From a virus: a DNA stretch of 64,000 nt. This document shows positions 50,215 through 64,000 of this stretch, in pieces. Numbering within the stretch: the first letter of the stretch is position 1; each line of letters begins with the position of its first letter. Made by a program: the position numbers and the translations under genes. The notes beneath the pieces were generated by a model. It saw only the letters and a list, made by a program, of their open reading frames with translations. It made no database searches and had not been told where the DNA came from. Where the stretch lies: the IMG/VR virus record IMGVR_UViG_3300035670_000091. One strand, given 5' to 3'.

Positions 50215-50287
50215 CCAGTAAGTTCGTAGGGCTGCGACTTTAGGTGTTATATAACCCCAAGTCCGTTACGAAGGAACTTACTGTTTG

Positions 50288-50359
50288 CTCTCCCCCCTGG
50301 GGTCGAACCAGGAACCACCCGATTAACAGTCGGACGCTCTGCCATTGAGCTAGGGGAGA
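50288..50359 (-). tRNA. trnN: tRNA-Asn (GTT), CCA not encoded
   Basis: Full cloverleaf: TCTCCCC/GGGGAGA acceptor, GCTC/GAGC D-stem, CTGTTAA anticodon loop, CCTGG-TTCGACC-CCAGG T-arm, G discriminator. Confidence 0.95.
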
Positions 50360-55984: not shown

Positions 55985-56232
55985 TAGTACCGCCTAAACT
56001 GCTGTCCAATCATCTGGTCCATGCGTCTGCCTTGACCGTCAATTGGGTTGACCTGGTGCGCCCATGCCTTTAGCTGGTTGCGCTCTTCCTGGTCCAGCGT
56101 GTTCATCGGCTGGTTGTTTAGGTAGTTCTCGCCCTGGTGCATCCAAAGGCCTGGCACCTTACGCCCGTACGGACGAGGCTGGTGTGGCTCGATTGGGTCT
56201 TTGCACTCTTCACAATAAAACTGACTAGTCAT
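55984..56232 (-). CDS. Hypothetical protein
   Basis: FYCEEC...LWMH; ends IGQQFRRY. Confidence 0.55.
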   Translation of the reverse strand: MTSQFYCEECKDPIEPHQPRPYGRKVPGLWMHQGENYLNNQPMNTLDQEERNQLKAWAHQVNPIDGQGRRMDQMIGQQFRRY

Positions 56233-56503
56233 TCTGGCCTGCCTTGTGTACTGCACCCATAGCATGCCAATCGGCGCTAGGGATGTCTCGACCGTAGATT
56301 ACGTCGTCGGAAGCAAAGTCTGGGTTGTGTTGGCTGATGTGGTCAACTACCGCACGGTAAGTTTTTTGGGCATGTAGGCGCACAGGGTGGTCGGCGGGTA
56401 GGGCTGACTGGTTAGTCCACTGGGTCTGAACGACGGCTTGGGCAGCCTTGGCTGCTCTGGTCGTTAGCGCTGAGAACTCAGGCCCGTGCTTGAACTCTGC
56501 CAT
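56225..56503 (-). CDS. Hypothetical protein
   Basis: Coupled ORF. Confidence 0.6.
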   Translation of the reverse strand: MAEFKHGPEFSALTTRAAKAAQAVVQTQWTNQSALPADHPVRLHAQKTYRAVVDHISQHNPDFASDDVIYGRDIPSADWHAMGAVHKAGQND

Positions 56504-56505
56504 GG

Positions 56506-56739
56506 TTATCGTCTGGCGTTGTTAGCTGCGTCGTTCATGTGGGCACGGCGACCGTATACAGCAGCGGTGACAGCAGCGGTACCAGCTGCCAGTGCAGCGG
56601 ACTTCATGTCTGGTGCGACGATTGCCTGCTGAATTGGGTGAGCAGGGTCCTGAAGCAGGTTGGAGGTAGCGGCCATGACGGTGCCGCCAGCAACAGCTGC
56701 AGCGGTGCCCATCCTCTTAGCAGTGTCTTTAAATCCCAT
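56506..56739 (-). CDS. Small protein with two hydrophobic Ala-rich helices
   Basis: Leaderless promoter TGG-CACACT-N6-ATG. Confidence 0.6.
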   Translation of the reverse strand: MGFKDTAKRMGTAAAVAGGTVMAATSNLLQDPAHPIQQAIVAPDMKSAALAAGTAAVTAAVYGRRAHMNDAANNARR

Positions 56740-56770
56740 GAATAAAGTGTGCCAGCTTCTAGGCCTATTG

Positions 56771-57325
56771 TCAGACTAAAGATTTCAAATACTCAAACAC
56801 CAAAAGGTGCCTTTTTGCGTCCCACTCTGCGTCGTGCGGCTTGTAGTCGTCTACTGCAGCGTGCGCACGGTTCATCGAGTCGCTCTTCCACGTCTCAAAA
56901 TTTTTGCCATCCTTGCCGTGGAACAACCACATCATCCCGTTTAGCTCGGCGGTCCGCCTGGACAGCAGCGCATACGTCTTTGGCAACTGCATTTTGATAA
57001 ATGGCAGGTCGAACCCCGTTATGTTGAATCCGACAGGCACATTTTTCTCTCTACGCTTGGGGTGAGCGCCCCTGTCAATCAGCCACTGGTGCAGTTCGGT
57101 GTCAACGCTATCCTGAGAACGCCCCTGCTGTATGACTGTCTCGTACGAAATGCCGTGCACCGCTGCCGCTCTGGCCTCCCAGGTCATCTCGCCAGGGTTG
57201 ATAAGCCAGCCTTGGGAGTCAATTTGGCCATCTGGCAGTCTGACGGCTACGCCAATCTGGATGAGTCGGCCGCCCTCGGCCAAATTTGGCGTACTCATCT
57301 CGCCGTCAATCCCAATAAATAGCAT
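56771..57325 (-). CDS. DEDDh 3'-5' exonuclease (DnaQ/oligoribonuclease-like)
   Basis: FIGIDGEMS, GFN.TGFDLPFI, HDAEWDA. Confidence 0.88.
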   Translation of the reverse strand: MLFIGIDGEMSTPNLAEGGRLIQIGVAVRLPDGQIDSQGWLINPGEMTWEARAAAVHGISYETVIQQGRSQDSVDTELHQWLIDRGAHPKRREKNVPVGFNITGFDLPFIKMQLPKTYALLSRRTAELNGMMWLFHGKDGKNFETWKSDSMNRAHAAVDDYKPHDAEWDAKRHLLVFEYLKSLV

Positions 57326-57331
57326 CCGACA

Positions 57332-57340
57332 AGGGTACCA
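57332..57340 (-). promoter_or_regulatory. Extended -10 promoter for a leaderless mRNA
   Basis: TGG-TACCCT-N6-ATG. Confidence 0.65.
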
Positions 57341-58219
57341 AACGGCAGGGGCGCTGTCAGGATAGCCGTCAGGCGTCCGACAGGGGGGGAAAAAGTGACT
57401 AAAGTGACCAAAGATAACGATTTGGTAACGATGACTGCGCTAGTTGTGGCGATTTTCGTGCTATGGCACAAAAAACTGCGGATTCCGCACTGTTTTGGGC
57501 CTTAAAACGTCATTTTTCGTGCGTTAGCACAGATTTTGCCACGATAAGCGTGGCTGGACGTCGGCTACTGCCTCAGAAAGTAGACGTGACCTGGGTGTTT
57601 CACCTGGGGGGAACTTTGTGGCAGCGTCGCCTAACCCTCCCCCCCTTGCTGACGGCTGTCTACCCCCCCTTGACGGCCGTCAGGCATCCGTCACCACCCT
57701 GCCCCCTGACTCGCAGTCAGGTGGCACACCCCTGCAACCCGCTCCACAGCTGGGCTGACGGCCTGCTCGGTGGCACACCCGATGGCGGGCCAGCCCGACC
57801 ACCCCTGCCACCCCTGCCAAGGTGGCCAGTTCGGCTACTGCTGGGCCAGCTGGTCGGCCTGTGTGGGAGCCACCAGACCACCACTACCACCCCCCTGCTG
57901 TTACCAGCTACGAGGCCAGCCAGCGACCCACTGAGACCAGCAGGCCAGCCCAGCCAGTGGGTGTGTCTCTCTCTCTCCTCTGGAGCCTCTACAGGACCTC
58001 ATGGACCCTGCTCCCGACCAAGGGGGGAGGACCCCCCTGAGACCCCCCCGAAGGCCATGTGGCAGGGGCGCTTCTAGGCCAGCCCTACGGACGGCTAACG
58101 GCCGTTGTTACCAAACTGTTACAAACGCCGACAACCCAGTGCTGGTGCGGGTTGTGGGCCATCCCGACACGCCCAACGGACAGACGTGTTGGACTTTCCA
58201 ACACAGCTGTGCTTTACTG

Positions 58220-58830
58220 GTTCCTGTCGGCGGTAGGGCAACCGAGTCGGCAGGGCCCTCAGCCCCCCGAGAGGGGGGCGGGGGCACCACCCGAAACTTC
58301 ACAACTCCACAGCAGACTTGCAAAACCCCAGCTGTATGGCTGGCACTGGCGCATCGCTTCGGTGCGTTGCTTGCGGACACCCTCGGCCATCGGCCACCGT
58401 CCGCCTCTCTCGGCAACGCCTCTACCGCACAGCGGTCACGCCCCAGTCCCAAACCGCAGTGGCAACACCGTAAACGACCCCTGTCAGGGCAACGTGATAC
58501 CCACTCTGCGGAGTGGCGGTGAGTAGCCTGTAGGGAGGATGCTCGATACCAACCATGTGAAACGTTGGCGGTGTGCACTGCGTGCCGAGTAGGGACTGGT
58601 AATCCCAACGCAGTCAGTATGAACGACCAAGTAGGGCTTCGGCCCAAGTGCCATCTGCTTCAAGGCTCAGCCAGTGTCCCGCAGGAGGGACGGTCGTGAC
58701 AGTTACCCCATCAGTCTTTGGTGCAGGGGCGCTTCGGTGTCCCTGCCCACTGATAGGCACAGGGGGGCAACCCCCCTGAGACCCCCCCTTGTCTCGCCTC
58801 CCTGTGCTTACCAGTGGCTGTGCCACTATC
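58220..58830 (+). ncRNA. Candidate large structured RNA / 5' leader, family not identified
   Basis: At least 10 stems readable by eye, including two C(UUCG)G and two GNRA loops and nested multiloops. Confidence 0.55.
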
Positions 58831-58851
58831 CGACACGACTAAGGAGAAACC

Positions 58852-59079
58852 ATGTTCAAGTTCCACTTCACCGCCAACACCCCGACCCGTAAGCCAACCC
58901 GCTACGGTTGGGTTCCAAACGTGGAGGGCTGGGTGTTCGCTCAGTCCATCGACCACGCCGAGGGCCTGCTACAGGCCAAGGGCTGGAGGCGCATCAGCCT
59001 GACCCGCTACAACAAGGACACCGAGTTCCAGCCACACTGGGCCACCGAAGGGTGCGACTGGGTGGAGGTGAACGCCTAA
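58852..59079 (+). CDS. Hypothetical protein (75 aa)
   Basis: TAAGGAG RBS. Confidence 0.8.
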   Translation: MFKFHFTANTPTRKPTRYGWVPNVEGWVFAQSIDHAEGLLQAKGWRRISLTRYNKDTEFQPHWATEGCDWVEVNA

Positions 59080-59083
59080 CCAA

Positions 59084-59141
59084 GGTCGAAACCGAGCTCC
59101 CCCCAGCTCGGTCTGCCAGTCATGCTGGCACTGACGAGACC
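59084..59141 (+). ncRNA. Type II hammerhead ribozyme 1 (predicted cleavage 59113/59114)
   Basis: GGTC-GAAA-stem III ACCGAGCT/AGCTCGGT-C-stem I TGCCAG/CTGGCA-CTGACGA-GACC. Confidence 0.93.
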
Positions 59142-59174
59142 GTATCCAATCCGACTCAACTAAGGAGAAGCACC

Positions 59175-59303
59175 ATGGGACTACAAGCTAAGTTCGAAGA
59201 CGGCACCGAGGTGTTCGTCACCATCACCCCTGACCTGTATTCCGAGACCCTGACGGCCCTTATCAAGGCGGGCGCTGTCTCAGTGGATTACATCGCCCTG
59301 TGA
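59175..59303 (+). CDS. 42-aa protein MGLQAKFEDGTEVFVTITPDLYSETLTALIKAGAVSVDYIAL
   Basis: TAAGGAG RBS; sits between the two hammerheads. Confidence 0.75.
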   Translation: MGLQAKFEDGTEVFVTITPDLYSETLTALIKAGAVSVDYIAL

Positions 59304-59307
59304 CCAA

Positions 59308-59363
59308 GGTCGAAACAGTGGGCCACCCCACTGTCTGCTGGTTAGGCCAGCACTGACGAGACC
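59308..59363 (+). ncRNA. Type II hammerhead ribozyme 2 (predicted cleavage 59335/59336)
   Basis: GGTC-GAAA-stem III ACAGTGGG/CCCACTGT-C-stem I TGCTGG/CCAGCA-CTGACGA-GACC. Confidence 0.93.
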
Positions 59364-59403
59364 GTCAGCCATCACCAATCCGACACGACTAAGGAGACAA
59401 CCC

Positions 59404-60774
59404 ATGTTCGGAGTAATCATTCAGCACACTGGCGCATCGGCATCCGAGCCAGCCCAGACCCTGCTCGTCCCATTCAACGGTGCCACGCTGGTGTTCCAGC
59501 GTGACGGCGTTGGCAAGCGTGGCTCAGCAGGAGCGTGGCGCAGGGAGCCTAGCCCTAGCCTCGCCAGCACCAAGGTCATTGGAGCCCCAGTGGCCGTCCG
59601 TCTGACAGAGTCAGACATCGACACCCTCGGTATCCACGAGACCAACCCAGCCATCCTGCCGAACGTCCTGTTCCAGAAGGCTGACCGCAAGGTCCGCAAG
59701 TTCACGTCCGTCACCAGCCACGCTGTGGCCGAGGTCGTGGCCGAGATTGACAAGAGCCTGTCCGTCGACCCATCAGGCGCAGGCCTGTCCCGCTTCGACG
59801 GCCGTCGTGTGCTCATTGACACCCCGAGCATCAAGGTCGTGGCCCCTGCTCCTGTCGTAGCTCCTACGGCTCCAGCTCCTGTGGCATCGGTGCCCGCAAC
59901 AAACCATGCGCCATCCGAGGTCCAGTGGGCCAGCCTCACCGTCCCACAGCTGTCCGACGTGGCCAGCTACCGAGTCCGCACCAACCTGCTCGGTGGCACC
60001 GTCTCGGAGGTCGACGTGTTCGACAAGTGCCGAGCATCCCAGCGCACCGTCTCCATCGTCGGCCACGCTGGCACTGGCAAGACTTCGTCCGTCACCCACT
60101 ACAGCGCACTGCGTGGCCTGCCACTGGTAGTCCTCGAGTGTGACATCGCTCTGGACGAGACCCAGACCGAGGGCACCTACATCCCCACTGGCAACGGCAA
60201 CGAGCTGGTGTGGGCCTACAGCGCTCTGGCCACAGCCATCCGTCAGCCGTCCGTCATTCTGCTCAACGAGCTGTCCCGACTAGCACCCAAGAACGCCTCC
60301 CTGTTCTTGTCCCTGCTGGCCGAGCGCCGTCTGATTGTCGGTCAGCGCCAAGGCGAGGTTATCAACGTCCACCCTGAGTGCCTGATTGTGGCTGACATGA
60401 ACCCAATCGGTTACTCGGGTGTGAGCAAGCAGGACCAAGCCCTGCTCGACCGCTTCAAGTTCGCCGTCACCTACGAATACGACCTAGACATCGACCGCAT
60501 CTGGTGCAAGTCTGAGTCGTTCCTGCGTGAGGTCGTTCAGCACTGGCGCAACAACCAGCAGGCTGACCCAAGTGCCACGCCGTTCAGCCACCGCCTCACC
60601 GAGGCGTTCAGCTGGGCTGTGAGCAACTTCGGGCTCAAGCCAGCAGTGCTCCAGTTGCTGGAGCGCTTCCAGCCAACCGAGCGTGACGTTCTCAAGCTCA
60701 CCATTTCCAAGTCGGCCACCGAAATCGCCAGCGAGTTTGGCGTGGACGTGGACGGCATCGACACCCTGCTCTAA
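59404..60774 (+). CDS. MoxR-type AAA+ ATPase (CobS/CbbQ-like)
   Basis: IVGHAGTGKTS Walker A, VILLNELSR Walker B variant, ADMNP.GYSG, ALLDRF arginine finger. Confidence 0.88.
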   Translation: MFGVIIQHTGASASEPAQTLLVPFNGATLVFQRDGVGKRGSAGAWRREPSPSLASTKVIGAPVAVRLTESDIDTLGIHETNPAILPNVLFQKADRKVRKFTSVTSHAVAEVVAEIDKSLSVDPSGAGLSRFDGRRVLIDTPSIKVVAPAPVVAPTAPAPVASVPATNHAPSEVQWASLTVPQLSDVASYRVRTNLLGGTVSEVDVFDKCRASQRTVSIVGHAGTGKTSSVTHYSALRGLPLVVLECDIALDETQTEGTYIPTGNGNELVWAYSALATAIRQPSVILLNELSRLAPKNASLFLSLLAERRLIVGQRQGEVINVHPECLIVADMNPIGYSGVSKQDQALLDRFKFAVTYEYDLDIDRIWCKSESFLREVVQHWRNNQQADPSATPFSHRLTEAFSWAVSNFGLKPAVLQLLERFQPTERDVLKLTISKSATEIASEFGVDVDGIDTLL

Positions 60775-60793
60775 TCCGAAAGCGAGTTCTATC

Positions 60794-62779
60794 GTGAGCA
60801 TCCAGTTCGGCCTCAACCAAGAGGCAATCCAGCACGACAGTGCCATCCGCATGACTCAGGTCGTGCAACAGTTCGCCACCATGTTCGTTGGTCGCAAGGT
60901 CGGTGTTCGCTTGTCGAACAACACCGTTGCGCCAGCATGGTCGACCAGCAACACCATCGAGTTCAGCGAGCCTCAGCTCCCTGACCTACAGACTGCTGAC
61001 GGCGTGCTATCCGTTAGGGGCCTGACGTTCCACGAGCTGAGCCACATCCTGTTCACCCCTCGTGCTCAGTCGGACATCGCCATCTGGGTGCGGGACAACA
61101 GCTACGGCTCAGCGTTCAACGCCCTCGAGGACCAGCGCATCGAGACCCTGATTACCGCTCGGTATGGGGCCCTCAAGCTCTGGCTCACTGGCACCATCGC
61201 CCAGCACCTGTTCCACTCGCCTCAGGCTATCTCGCAGGCGTTCCCGCTGGTTCGTGGTCGCAAGTATCTGCCAGTGGAGCTCCGCAAGCTGGCACGTGAC
61301 CGCTACGCCAACCCGCAGGACATCGACGAGCTCGCCAGCATCATCGACGAGTATCGCCTCCTGCTGTTCCCTCAGGACACCGAGCGTGCCAAGCCACTTA
61401 TCGCACGCTACGCCGAGCTGGTCCGCAACCTGCCTGAGCAGGGTGCTGGCATGCCTGACCCATACGGCCACAGCTCACGCCCTGACTCCGAGCACCACTC
61501 CAGCATCAAGGACAAGCCACTCAGCAAGTCCGAGCAGGAGCGCACTCGTGAGCGTGCCAAGGCACAGGACGAGCAGGTCGAGGACGAGGACGAGTTCAAC
61601 TGGGGCAACCCTGACCAGCAGGACGAGGACCGCAACAAACCATCCGACACCGACGAGCAGGACACTGACTCTGACGGCCAGCCATCGGACAGCGAGTCCG
61701 ACAGCACCGACTCTGACGAGTCCGCATCCGACAGCGACAGCGACTCCGACAGCGAGTCCGACAGCACCGACAGCTCCGACAGCGACTCCGACATCGACGG
61801 CGAGCCAACGGACAACGTGTCCGACAGCTACGGTGACGGACAGTCCGACAACGACCACGAGTCCGACAGCACCGAGACCAGCTCTGGTTCCGACCTGAGC
61901 AAGGCCAACGCTGAGGTTCGTGAGCTCATGGAGGACGTGCTCGACTCGCTCAAGCAGTCGCTCGGTTCAGCCATCGCTGACGAGGTGGCCAAGTATGGCG
62001 GTGACGTAGTCCTGCAGGGCATCCCTGCCAAGACCCCACGTCCTGCCTACAACTACCCTGAGGTTGTCTCAGGTGGCGGTGTTCAGGCATCCGTTGCGTT
62101 CAAGCAGGAGCTCCTCAAGCTCAAGCAGGAGCACGACCCAAGCTGGGACCGCAAGGTTCGCAAAGGCCGTCTCAACCCACTGCGTTACGCTCAGGGCCAC
62201 GACATCGACGAGCTGTTCGACAAGTTCGAGCATGGTCGTGACGATGCTGTGGACATCGAGGCTGTAATTCTGCTGGACACCAGCGGTTCAATGTCAGGTG
62301 ACAACATCCGTCGGGCCAACGAGTCCCTGTGGGGTCTCAAGTCCGCTCTGGATGCCGTCAACGCCTCCTGCACTGCGGTGACGTTCAGTAGCGATGCCAG
62401 ACTGCTCTACTCAGCAGACGAGCGTGTGAGCTCCATCATGCGCTTCGCCCCTGCTCAGGGTGGCACTGACCCGCTCGAGGCCCTCCAGTATGCCAACCAC
62501 GTGCTGGCCACCAGCGACCGCAAGGTCAAGGTGCTGTTCGTCATTACTGACGGCGCATGGAACGGTGACGTGGAGCGTGCTGAGCGCATCATCAAGAACC
62601 TGCGAGACGGTGGCGTTGTCACTGCCTTGTCCTACCTTGGTTACGTTGGCGAGTCACTGGCCAACGTTGACCGCCACGAGTGCGAAGCGGTGGCTCACGT
62701 CACCAATGCTTCGGACCTACTCGAGGTCGGCAGGTCGGTAGTCAAGCTGGCTATCGCTCGCAACCTAGTCAACGCTTAG
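60794..62779 (+). CDS. vWA domain protein (CobT-like) with N-terminal HExxH domain and acidic Ser/Asp linker
   Basis: FHELSH...NALEDQRIE; LLDTSGSM, GGTD, ITDG MIDAS; in-frame GTG 60794 avoids overlap with the ATPase. Confidence 0.88.
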   Translation: MSIQFGLNQEAIQHDSAIRMTQVVQQFATMFVGRKVGVRLSNNTVAPAWSTSNTIEFSEPQLPDLQTADGVLSVRGLTFHELSHILFTPRAQSDIAIWVRDNSYGSAFNALEDQRIETLITARYGALKLWLTGTIAQHLFHSPQAISQAFPLVRGRKYLPVELRKLARDRYANPQDIDELASIIDEYRLLLFPQDTERAKPLIARYAELVRNLPEQGAGMPDPYGHSSRPDSEHHSSIKDKPLSKSEQERTRERAKAQDEQVEDEDEFNWGNPDQQDEDRNKPSDTDEQDTDSDGQPSDSESDSTDSDESASDSDSDSDSESDSTDSSDSDSDIDGEPTDNVSDSYGDGQSDNDHESDSTETSSGSDLSKANAEVRELMEDVLDSLKQSLGSAIADEVAKYGGDVVLQGIPAKTPRPAYNYPEVVSGGGVQASVAFKQELLKLKQEHDPSWDRKVRKGRLNPLRYAQGHDIDELFDKFEHGRDDAVDIEAVILLDTSGSMSGDNIRRANESLWGLKSALDAVNASCTAVTFSSDARLLYSADERVSSIMRFAPAQGGTDPLEALQYANHVLATSDRKVKVLFVITDGAWNGDVERAERIIKNLRDGGVVTALSYLGYVGESLANVDRHECEAVAHVTNASDLLEVGRSVVKLAIARNLVNA

Positions 62780-62786
62780 TTGACTC

Positions 62787-62827
62787 AGCCCTGACGGACA
62801 GCAGTTGTCTCCCTGTCCGTCAGGGCT
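62787..62827 (+). terminator. 15-bp perfect hairpin (terminator or processing site, no U-tract)
   Basis: AGCCCTGACGGACAG / CTGTCCGTCAGGGCT. Confidence 0.55.
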
Positions 62828-62885
62828 CCGCCACAAACCATCCAAACTTCAAACCCTCAACATCCACTTCAACGTTAGGAACATC

Positions 62886-63527
62886 ATGCTAAGCAAGCAG
62901 ATTCTCGCACTACCCCTCGGCACCGAGCTGGTTGTATCCAGCCGTTACCTTGGTCACCGAGTTGCCCACAAGGACAACAAGACCCCTGAGCGCATCAAGG
63001 AGCACGATGCTCACGTCGGCACGCTCTACGCTTACGACAACTACGAGGAGTCCCACTACCGCTCCAACACCGACCACCACTCGGACTGGACCAAGACCAC
63101 CACTGACCGCACCAAGCGATTCCTGCTCAAGTTCAAGGACACCGCAGGCTCCGACGTGTGGGCCATCATCCCTGTGCAGGACATCATCGCCACCAAGGTT
63201 GAGGTTGAGCCACGCTGGGCACAGGAGCGCACTGAGCGGGCCATCGCTCAGGCAGAGGCTGACCGCATCGCACAAGCCCAGCAGGCCATCGAGGAGAAGC
63301 GCAAGCTGACCGAAGAGAGTGTCAAAGAGGCCGTCCACACCAGCCTGCTCGAGCTCTTCGGTGCTGACTACTCAAACAAGGGTGTCCGCATTGGCTACAT
63401 CCGCACCTACAGCAGGGTGAACGCTGGTCCTGACGGCCAGCTCACAACCAAGCTGGAGAACGGTGGAGACATCGAAATCCCTGTGGACCTATTCCTTCGC
63501 ATGGTCGAGCGCTTCGCCAGCGAGTAA
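62886..63527 (+). CDS. Hypothetical protein
   Basis: TTAGGA RBS before ATG 62886; C-ending codon bias like neighbours. Confidence 0.75.
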   Translation: MLSKQILALPLGTELVVSSRYLGHRVAHKDNKTPERIKEHDAHVGTLYAYDNYEESHYRSNTDHHSDWTKTTTDRTKRFLLKFKDTAGSDVWAIIPVQDIIATKVEVEPRWAQERTERAIAQAEADRIAQAQQAIEEKRKLTEESVKEAVHTSLLELFGADYSNKGVRIGYIRTYSRVNAGPDGQLTTKLENGGDIEIPVDLFLRMVERFASE

Positions 63528-63535
63528 CACCAACA

Positions 63536-63633
63536 GCCAGACCAGCAGACACCGAGGTGCGAGTCCTCGGCTGGCACGAGTGCCGAACCAATCAGTAGGC
63601 CCTACAGACCTGAGCACGTCGCTAAACGGCTCA
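63536..63633 (+). ncRNA. Candidate structured intergenic RNA with T-loop-like hairpin
   Basis: CCGAGG-TGCGAGT-CCTCGG plus three further stems. Confidence 0.45.
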
Positions 63634-63660
63634 CCCATCCGACAACACTAAGGAGCACCA

Positions 63661-64000
63661 ATGACCACCACGTTCAAGCCAGCTGGCGCACCAGCCAGCA
63701 ACCAATACGGCCAGTTCACTGTCCGTTACGCATCACCTGCCCAACAGCGATACATCCGTCAGCTGTTGGACGAACGCCAGCACGACTTCGGGGAGGACTT
63801 CGACCCAGCAACCGTCAACGTGCAGAACGCATCGCACGTCATCGACCAATTGCTACGGACACCTGTCAGAGCCGACAAGGTTGTTCCAGCATCCGACAAG
63901 CAGTTGGCATTCATCGAGTCGCTGAAGACCCAGCGTCAAGGTGCGGTCCAGTTCCTGACGGACTACCTTGCCCTACACAAGTCCGACAGCTTGTCAGCCC
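63661..64000 (+). CDS. Hypothetical protein, truncated by window end (not in ORF track)
   Basis: MTTTFKPAGAP...; internal repeat ASPAQQRYIRQL / ASDKQLAFIESL; TAAGGAG RBS. Confidence 0.75.
   Translation, partial: MTTTFKPAGAPASNQYGQFTVRYASPAQQRYIRQLLDERQHDFGEDFDPATVNVQNASHVIDQLLRTPVRADKVVPASDKQLAFIESLKTQRQGAVQFLTDYLALHKSDSLSA

Follow-up and report, generated by a model that had tools for sequence, protein, structure and literature searches.

Two hammerhead motifs (HH1 and HH2) that bracket a 42-aa gene in a tailed phage probably act as punctuation ribozymes, which would resolve a polycistronic phage transcript into linear, hairpin-capped single-gene mRNAs with standard leaders, and we place the probability of this reading at roughly 0.68. 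It is favored because the catalytic core and the helices are whole, a covariance model built from other phages (R2) gives both copies high scores, the stems covary, the motifs sit at a fixed place relative to stop and start codons, they recur in arrays in other phages, and solitary copies exist. It is weakened because the Rfam score lies below the gathering threshold, no pairing between loop I and the 3′ tail was seen, and HH2 has a competing fold.

The window, i.e., the whole stretch of 64,000 nucleotides that was analyzed (IMG/VR record IMGVR_UViG_3300035670_000091), is part of a tailed phage, with genes for the baseplate wedge, tail sheath, capsid, portal and large terminase on the minus strand up to ~57.3 kb and a plus-strand block from ~57.4 kb onward, in which the G+C content is 0.58-0.62 vs. 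~0.50. The G+C content climbs from ~0.50 to ~0.60 around 56000-57400, where the gene strand switches from minus to plus, and this shift suggests that the ribozyme-bearing block may be a mosaic acquisition. The block contains, in order, a structured 130-nt element, a 75-aa ORF, HH1, the 42-aa ORF, HH2, an AAA+ ATPase gene and the gene of a VWA protein. Neither a sigma-70-like promoter nor an intrinsic terminator was detected on the plus strand between 58 and 64 kb, which is consistent with a single long transcript. The features on which the analysis turns are the following:

58852..59079, plus strand: upstream 75-aa ORF, with its TAA stop (59077-59079) 4 nt ahead of HH1 stem II
59084..59141, plus strand: hammerhead 1 (HH1), type II, from Rfam RF02276, the independent covariance model R2 and fold prediction
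59084-59112, plus strand: HH1 stem II 5′ strand GGUC (59084-59087), GAAA (59088-59091) and stem III (59091-59112, 8 bp)
59113-59141, plus strand: HH1 C17 (59113), stem I (59114-59130), CUGACGA (59131-59137) and GACC (59138-59141)
59113..59114, plus strand: predicted cleavage site 1, after C17 (59113), by the hammerhead consensus on the sequence
59114..59335, plus strand: predicted excised RNA of 222 nt, between the two predicted cuts
59149..59167, plus strand: conserved leader ATCCGAC-N5-TAAGGAG with the Shine-Dalgarno sequence, 7 nt ahead of the ATG
59175..59303, plus strand: 42-aa protein gene, from ATG 59175 to TGA 59303
59308..59363, plus strand: hammerhead 2 (HH2), type II, beginning 4 nt past the TGA stop of the 42-aa gene
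59308-59334, plus strand: HH2 stem II 5′ strand GGUC (59308-59311), GAAA (59312-59315) and stem III (59315-59334, 8 bp)
59335-59363, plus strand: HH2 C17 (59335), stem I (59336-59352), CUGACGA (59353-59359) and GACC (59360-59363)
59335..59336, plus strand: predicted cleavage site 2, after C17 (59335), from the sequence
59404..60774, plus strand: MoxR/CobS-like AAA+ ATPase gene (Pfam AAA_5, 3.5e-15; PHROG 249)
60683-62779, plus strand: VWA-domain protein gene (Pfam VWA, 3.1e-10), after the AAA+ gene

The 75-aa ORF (58852..59079, plus strand) had no Pfam match. Just upstream of this first small gene of the block lies a strongly structured intergenic element (58706-58830, z -5.66) with a partial copy at 58023-58074; it holds G6, C6 and C7 runs with mutually exclusive pairings, plus two more hairpins, and is conserved upstream of a 39-aa gene in three related contigs (L016, L017 and L020). 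The element returned no Rfam match, and it could possibly be a processing site, an attenuator or a promoter-proximal element. A structured spacer at 63536-63633 occupies the same slot as the hammerheads, after a stop codon and before an ATCCGAC leader, and was matched by neither hammerhead model. The VWA-domain gene carries Asp/Ser/Glu-rich tandem repeats (61568-61870) with periods of ~42-63 nt, and the phage bears a tRNA-Asn (GTT) at 50287-50359 on the minus strand (62 bits). A blastn search of 57000-63999 against GenBank phages gave no match, the AAA+ protein as a query for related loci found no relative in viral contigs, and alignment A2 as a query against metagenome contigs yielded 106 pattern matches, none of which was confirmed. 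Among public sequencing runs, none of RNA was listed for 58600-59900 or for 59050-59420, and the runs that contain the stretch are DNA runs of a subsurface metagenome. The contigs of four DNA runs are collinear and jointless over 58600-59900, an observation on DNA that is silent on RNA topology.

Between 59076 and 59375 on the plus strand, each copy presents A-GGUC, GAAA, an 8-bp hairpin, GUC, a 6-7-bp hairpin, CUGACGA and GACC in this order, which is the type II permutation with capped stems I and III and an open stem II. The catalytic core (C3 U4 G5 A6 N7 G8 A9, G12 A13 A14, the A15.1-U16.1 pair and H17) is complete in both HH1 and HH2, which read CUGACGA ... GAAA ... GUC with A15.1-U16.1 and G10.1-C11.1, and these columns are invariant in 25 members of the subfamily. 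Between HH1 and HH2 themselves, stems I and III show compensatory differences. At the Rfam gathering threshold neither copy was recovered: with Hammerhead_II (RF02276) both scored 29.3 bits, under the gathering score of 37, at E-values of 0.0028 when 2.5 kb was searched and, for HH1, 0.071 over the whole window. Model R2, trained on 21 hammerheads from viral contigs other than the window, gave 70.2 bits for HH1 (E = 4e-20) and 66.5 bits for HH2 (E = 6e-19), while the next best match in the 64 kb reached 13.9 bits. A search of IMG/VR for exact matches to the shared core, the stems being free to vary, identified 15 viral contigs, on which a structural scan together with a covariance model recovered ~35 hammerheads of like build; RF02276 at its gathering threshold passes only 2 of these ~35 clear subfamily members (L001-L016, 14 loci), so the low Rfam score is a trait of the Rfam model or its seed and not a weakness of the motif. 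The subfamily is probably under-annotated in phage genomes, with the Rfam cut-off missing most members.

Across the three helices in the alignment of 25 subfamily members, 98.8% of the helix cells form standard pairs and 11 of the 13 variable pairs changed on both sides, a level of pairing and covariation matched by 0/500 shuffles, with slid registers also nowhere near it. The three-helix junction with looped stems I and III and an open stem II was predicted to fold in HH1, in HH2 and in the chimera that would arise by joining the ends of the excised RNA, and in HH1 this three-way junction is the minimum-energy structure. Sequence comparison thus confirms HH1 and HH2 as genuine type II hammerheads, far beyond chance, for which self-cleavage is predicted. 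The double excision of a single-gene RNA, as proposed in a first-pass annotation of this DNA, is supported in silico, and both hammerheads are real by R2 and covariation.

For HH2, the predicted hammerhead fold (-26.5 kcal/mol) lies 4.3 kcal/mol above a competing fold (-30.8 kcal/mol) in which CUGACG pairs with CGUCAG in the 3′ tail. This core strand/tail pairing spans 59353-59368, and a similar GACCGUCA tail is present in L016, L017 and L003; it may reflect refolding after cleavage or an off-switch. A competing fold of this kind would fit hammerheads that serve as conditional regulators, in which self-cleavage would race against translation termination 4 nt upstream or against alternative folds (e.g., the HH2 CUGACG/CGUCAG hairpin) and would thereby tune the decay or relative dosage of the neighboring genes rather than process the transcript constitutively. 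At the short distances between stop codon and stem II (0-7 nt), a ribosome that terminates would sit over stem II and a part of stem III, which points the same way, as do the HH2 alternative that is stabler than the hammerhead and the recurrence of the GACCGUCA tail in relatives. However, HH1 has no alternative hairpin, no ligand-binding or sensor domain accompanies either copy, and the tail sequence is variable across the subfamily, and we consider conditional regulation unlikely as the function of the pair.

In the published type II hammerhead consensus, loop I pairs with the sequence 3′ of stem II to form a pseudoknot. Comparison of loop I (consensus G-U-N-A-N-G-C) with the 3′ tails of the aligned members revealed no consistent complementarity, as judged by eye and without a statistic, and activity at physiological Mg2+ is for this reason only putative. 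The invariant U and G of the loop, together with the invariant A-GGUC, suggest that a contact of another kind may exist.

The placement of the motifs is shared well beyond the window. For most hammerheads in the scanned viral and metagenome contigs, the distance from the preceding stop codon to the 5′ strand of stem II is -1 to +7 nt. Another 12-40 nt separate stem II from the next start codon. Arrays of three (L008:4550-5390, minus strand), four (L012), four (L013:3668-5241, plus strand) and eight hammerheads (L015:2050-7666, minus strand) bound single-gene units of 149-590 nt, with each hammerhead right after a stop codon. Two other loci of 10-15 kb (L002 and L009) carry solitary hammerheads, which shows that hammerhead function needs no partner. 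The subfamily is also present in three bacterial assemblies, and the chromosome of the cultured Caballeronia sp. LZ033 (L023, 1958-3016) carries three hammerheads, at 1958, 2594 and 2943, which are 636 and 349 nt apart. As a by-product, the analysis defines a type II subfamily with an invariant A-GGUC/GACC stem II that lies directly after stop codons at up to 8 copies per 5.6 kb.

Between the two hammerheads of the window, the leader ATCCGAC-N5-TAAGGAG (Shine-Dalgarno TAAGGAG at 59161-59167) belongs to a repeat family, D3, with copies at 58825, 59146, 59375 and 63634. It precedes four plus-strand genes, with two of the copies directly after hammerheads, and looks like a standard translation-initiation module. 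The 42-aa gene differs from its counterparts in five related contigs by 8-9 synonymous and 2 non-synonymous codon changes at ~90% nucleotide identity, and judged from its sequence it is a real protein-coding gene. Its product has one homologous cluster (P0003, 95% identical) and no match in Pfam or Atlas, a degenerate back-translated pattern of its N-terminus had 0 matches in viral contigs, and single-sequence AlphaFold returned a low-confidence beta-beta-alpha-beta model (pLDDT 67).

The 222-nt interval that the first-pass annotation had drawn between the predicted cuts (59114-59335) proved exact in coordinates and arithmetic, and the RBS and the 42-aa ORF lie within it as described (TAAGGAG 59161-59167; ATG 59175 to TGA 59303). 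The end chemistry that it assumed, i.e., 5′-OH and 2′,3′-cyclic phosphate ends open to RtcB or reverse ligation, is established (PMC6765202, PMC7229834). From 5′ to 3′, the predicted RNA consists of the stem I hairpin, a core strand, the leader, the Shine-Dalgarno sequence, the 42-aa ORF, a core strand and the stem III hairpin; it would begin with the 5′-OH of U59114, where the stem I hairpin starts, and end in GUC with the cyclic phosphate.

Under the punctuation reading, the two elements are hammerheads of predicted active type, and each begins 4 nt past the stop of one gene and is followed by the standard leader for the next. Cuts behind C59113 and C59335 would place the 75-aa gene, the 42-aa gene and the AAA+/VWA genes on linear mRNAs of their own, each product having a 5′ end with a 5′-OH on a flush stem I hairpin and a 3′ end formed by the stem III hairpin with a single-nucleotide overhang (C17) and a 2′,3′-cyclic phosphate. 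By the established rules of bacterial mRNA decay, hairpin ends of this kind would resist 5′-end-dependent RNase E/J, 3′ exonucleases and polyadenylation. Because the linear product would be hairpin-capped at both ends, circularization would be superfluous for its stability. Cleavage would also give every gene a context-independent 5′ leader and so have an insulator effect. We infer that the hammerheads cleave in vivo with these stabilizing and insulating effects, and that linear RNA is the main product, beside which a minor circular fraction is conceivable.

A different fate for the 222-nt RNA had been put forward in the first-pass annotation, in which reverse hammerhead ligation or host RtcB closes it into an exonuclease-resistant circle, a persistent mRNA from which the 42-aa protein would be translated. 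The geometry is right for such a circle: as that annotation had stated, joining the ends gives a chimera (HH2 5′ half plus HH1 3′ half) that is predicted to fold as a canonical hammerhead at -25.1 kcal/mol, similar to its parents. The ends of the linear RNA can meet, because the two stem II strands (GACC 59138-59141 and GGUC 59308-59311) pair in its minimum-energy fold, with an ensemble probability of 0.25; in the circle the ViennaRNA probability of the chimeric stem II is 0.014 vs. this 0.25, under an energy model that omits tertiary contacts. RtcB closes hammerhead-cut monomers to 30-80% in vitro (PMC7229834), and engineered hammerhead constructs gave 6.7-9.5% circles in E. coli, as cited by a 2024 paper (PMC11592204). 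On the other hand, self-ligation of retrozyme monomers by the hammerhead itself reaches only 1-3% (PMC7229834), and neither circular nor spliced products were detected for the prophage hammerhead clusters described in 2011 (PMC3088659). The unit length of 222 nt is a multiple of 3, yet every frame around the circle holds at least one stop codon, which leaves no stop-free frame and rules out rolling-circle translation.

The circle would also be expected to re-open, because the reconstituted ribozyme should fold as readily as the parental ones and the RNA lacks the compact, rod-like self-pairing that could suppress it. Compared with shuffles, the 222-nt RNA folds with a z of 0.03, and the internal 166 nt (leader plus ORF) with a z of +1.61, 198 of 200 shuffles folding at least equally well; by these folding models, the internal part is structure-poor in the manner of an ordinary translated mRNA. 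Of the traits of viroid- or retrozyme-like RNAs, the 222-nt RNA has ends that would rebuild a ribozyme if joined, but it is neither a compact monomer nor conserved or repeated as a flanked unit.

The identity of stem II in the two copies, on which the circular proposal had leaned, does let the ends rebuild a hammerhead, but it is no signature of this locus: stem II is GGUC/GACC in 25/25 aligned subfamily members, a count to be read in light of a seed pattern that demanded GGUC/GACC, and further copies recovered with stem II left unconstrained have the same stem, apart from one weak exception. End-joining could therefore rebuild a hammerhead for any neighboring pair of the subfamily. That hammerheads of the subfamily also occur singly, and that the linear product would already end in a stable hairpin on both sides, speak likewise against a selected circle. 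RtcB had no match when 10 ORFs of 370-573 aa (RtcB-sized or larger) were compared with Pfam, which returned structural proteins only, and no ligase was found among the ~27 ORFs scanned, a weak result since the window covers a portion of the phage and no host genes. An exact scan of metagenome contigs for the predicted 28-nt back-junction gave 0 matches, which is uninformative on RNA circles as the contigs are not metatranscriptomes.

The arrangement in related phages bears on the same point. In 5/5 related contigs for which DNA was at hand (L016-L020), the 42-aa gene lacks the upstream hammerhead and has only the downstream one; there the gene (95% aa identity to that of the window) is translationally coupled to a preceding 39-aa CxxC...CxxC gene, with a TAACC spacer before its ATG, and the order runs from the structured element through the 39-aa gene, the 42-aa gene, hammerhead a, a 145/148-aa gene and hammerhead b to the AAA+ gene. 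HH1 and its leader share 98.9% identity with hammerhead b of L018, a copy that precedes the AAA+ gene there and has different flanking genes, and the 42-aa gene of the window with HH2 and its leader resembles the 42-aa gene and hammerhead a of the relatives at about 85%. The cassette of 42-aa gene, hammerhead and leader hence occupies a different slot in the window and in the relatives, and from these gene orders and identities the presence of hammerheads on both sides of the 42-aa gene is the outcome of a cassette rearrangement rather than a conserved excision unit. An origin of the cassette from a circle-derived copy integrated at the hammerhead cut was rejected, as homology ends near the Shine-Dalgarno sequence and the ATG and not at the ribozyme cut, and as HH1 aligns without a break to its orthologue over stem III, stem I and the leader.

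The circular mini-mRNA is a legitimate and old hypothesis, but as a selected function it is unsupported and meets some counter-evidence (unconserved unit, solitary copies, no compact fold, hairpin-capped ends); the comparative data lean against it, and we regard it as improbable. A broader version seems very unlikely, in which RtcB of some hosts circularizes a meaningful fraction of hammerhead-bounded phage cassettes, among them the 222-nt unit, into translatable mRNAs; a related idea is that RNA cut and rejoined at the invariant stem II junctions contributes to the cassette shuffling between relatives. If true, RtcB-closed phage cassettes would be the natural counterpart of engineered ribozyme-flanked circularization, and circular mRNAs from a DNA phage would amount to a new mode of bacterial gene expression. 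The array of Caballeronia sp. LZ033 is a place where the linear-versus-circular question could be settled by experiment.

The same rearrangements raise the alternative that hammerhead-plus-leader modules are portable junction repeats, either recombination substrates for cassette shuffling or selfish intergenic repeats, with RNA cleavage secondary or neutral. Besides the near-identical copy of HH1 and its leader between different neighbors in L018 and the changed slot of the 42-aa cassette, two near-identical contigs (L016:322-921 and L017:341-945) have exchanged the stem III hairpins of two hammerheads, with a divergent allele of the gene in between, so that the mosaic breakpoints are located inside the ribozymes. 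These exchanges indicate that the modules behave as mosaic junctions, and a further by-product of the analysis is that they mark mosaic breakpoints among related phages. Against repeats as the primary function stand the invariant catalytic core and the stems that covary to preserve pairing across distant phages, which argue for selection on the RNA and not on a DNA repeat, together with the precise placement relative to stop and start codons; we hold this explanation to be doubtful, with a low probability.

Punctuation of phage operons by ribozymes has been known since 2011, and its function is still poorly understood. Hammerheads of prophages often flank individual genes or short gene blocks and cleave in vitro and in E. 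coli, and Perreault et al. (2011; PMC3088659) suggested that they process single-gene mRNAs, noting also that cleavage and ligation could give spliced or circular RNAs; in our literature search, no subsequent paper described circular mRNAs arising from hammerhead pairs of phages. The clusters described there, e.g., the triple arrangement at Agrobacterium tumefaciens ardA and those of Clostridium scindens and Azorhizobium caulinodans (PMC3088659), share with the window several type II hammerheads in one phage transcript that bound single genes of varying identity. In contrast to those clusters, the window belongs to another phage, represented by a myovirus-like contig of a subsurface metagenome; its subfamily has an invariant GGUC/GACC stem II, no evident loop I-tail pseudoknot and scores mostly under the Rfam cut-off, and its unit is unusually small (222 nt, 42 aa). 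A close parallel in layout is the pair loc 2 and loc 3 of Desulfovibrio vulgaris, two type II hammerheads ~313 nt apart that also flank a small gene among phage-like neighbors and whose linear 2′,3′-cP and 5′-OH ends were captured in vivo by cyPhyRNA-seq (PMC8782182); the linear ends there are experimental whereas those of the window pair are predicted. For bacterial hammerheads in general, processing of polycistronic transcripts is the suggested role, and cleavage is reversible (PMC6765202).

Retrozymes and viroid-like circRNAs resemble the window in that tandem hammerheads excise a monomer (170-400 nt in their case) with ligatable ends that rebuild a hammerhead (PMC4918200, PMC7229834, PMC7761336). 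Their hammerheads, however, are of type I or III and stand in identical tandem repeats, whereas those of the window are of type II, with differing stems I and III, in the operon of a DNA phage. The retrozyme and viroid-like RNAs fold compactly, either are non-coding or act as replicons, and have been observed as circles, with tRNA ligase or RtcB as the closing enzyme; the cargo of the window is by contrast a structure-poor coding mRNA in a flanked unit that is not conserved and whose circle is hypothetical. Among engineered systems, Tornado-type designs use flanking ribozymes that leave RtcB-ligatable ends and add a long closing stem, compared with only the 4-bp stem II in the window. In RiboJ-type insulators, an engineered self-cleaving ribozyme upstream of a standard leader strips away the upstream context, which is the effect that we propose for HH1 and HH2.
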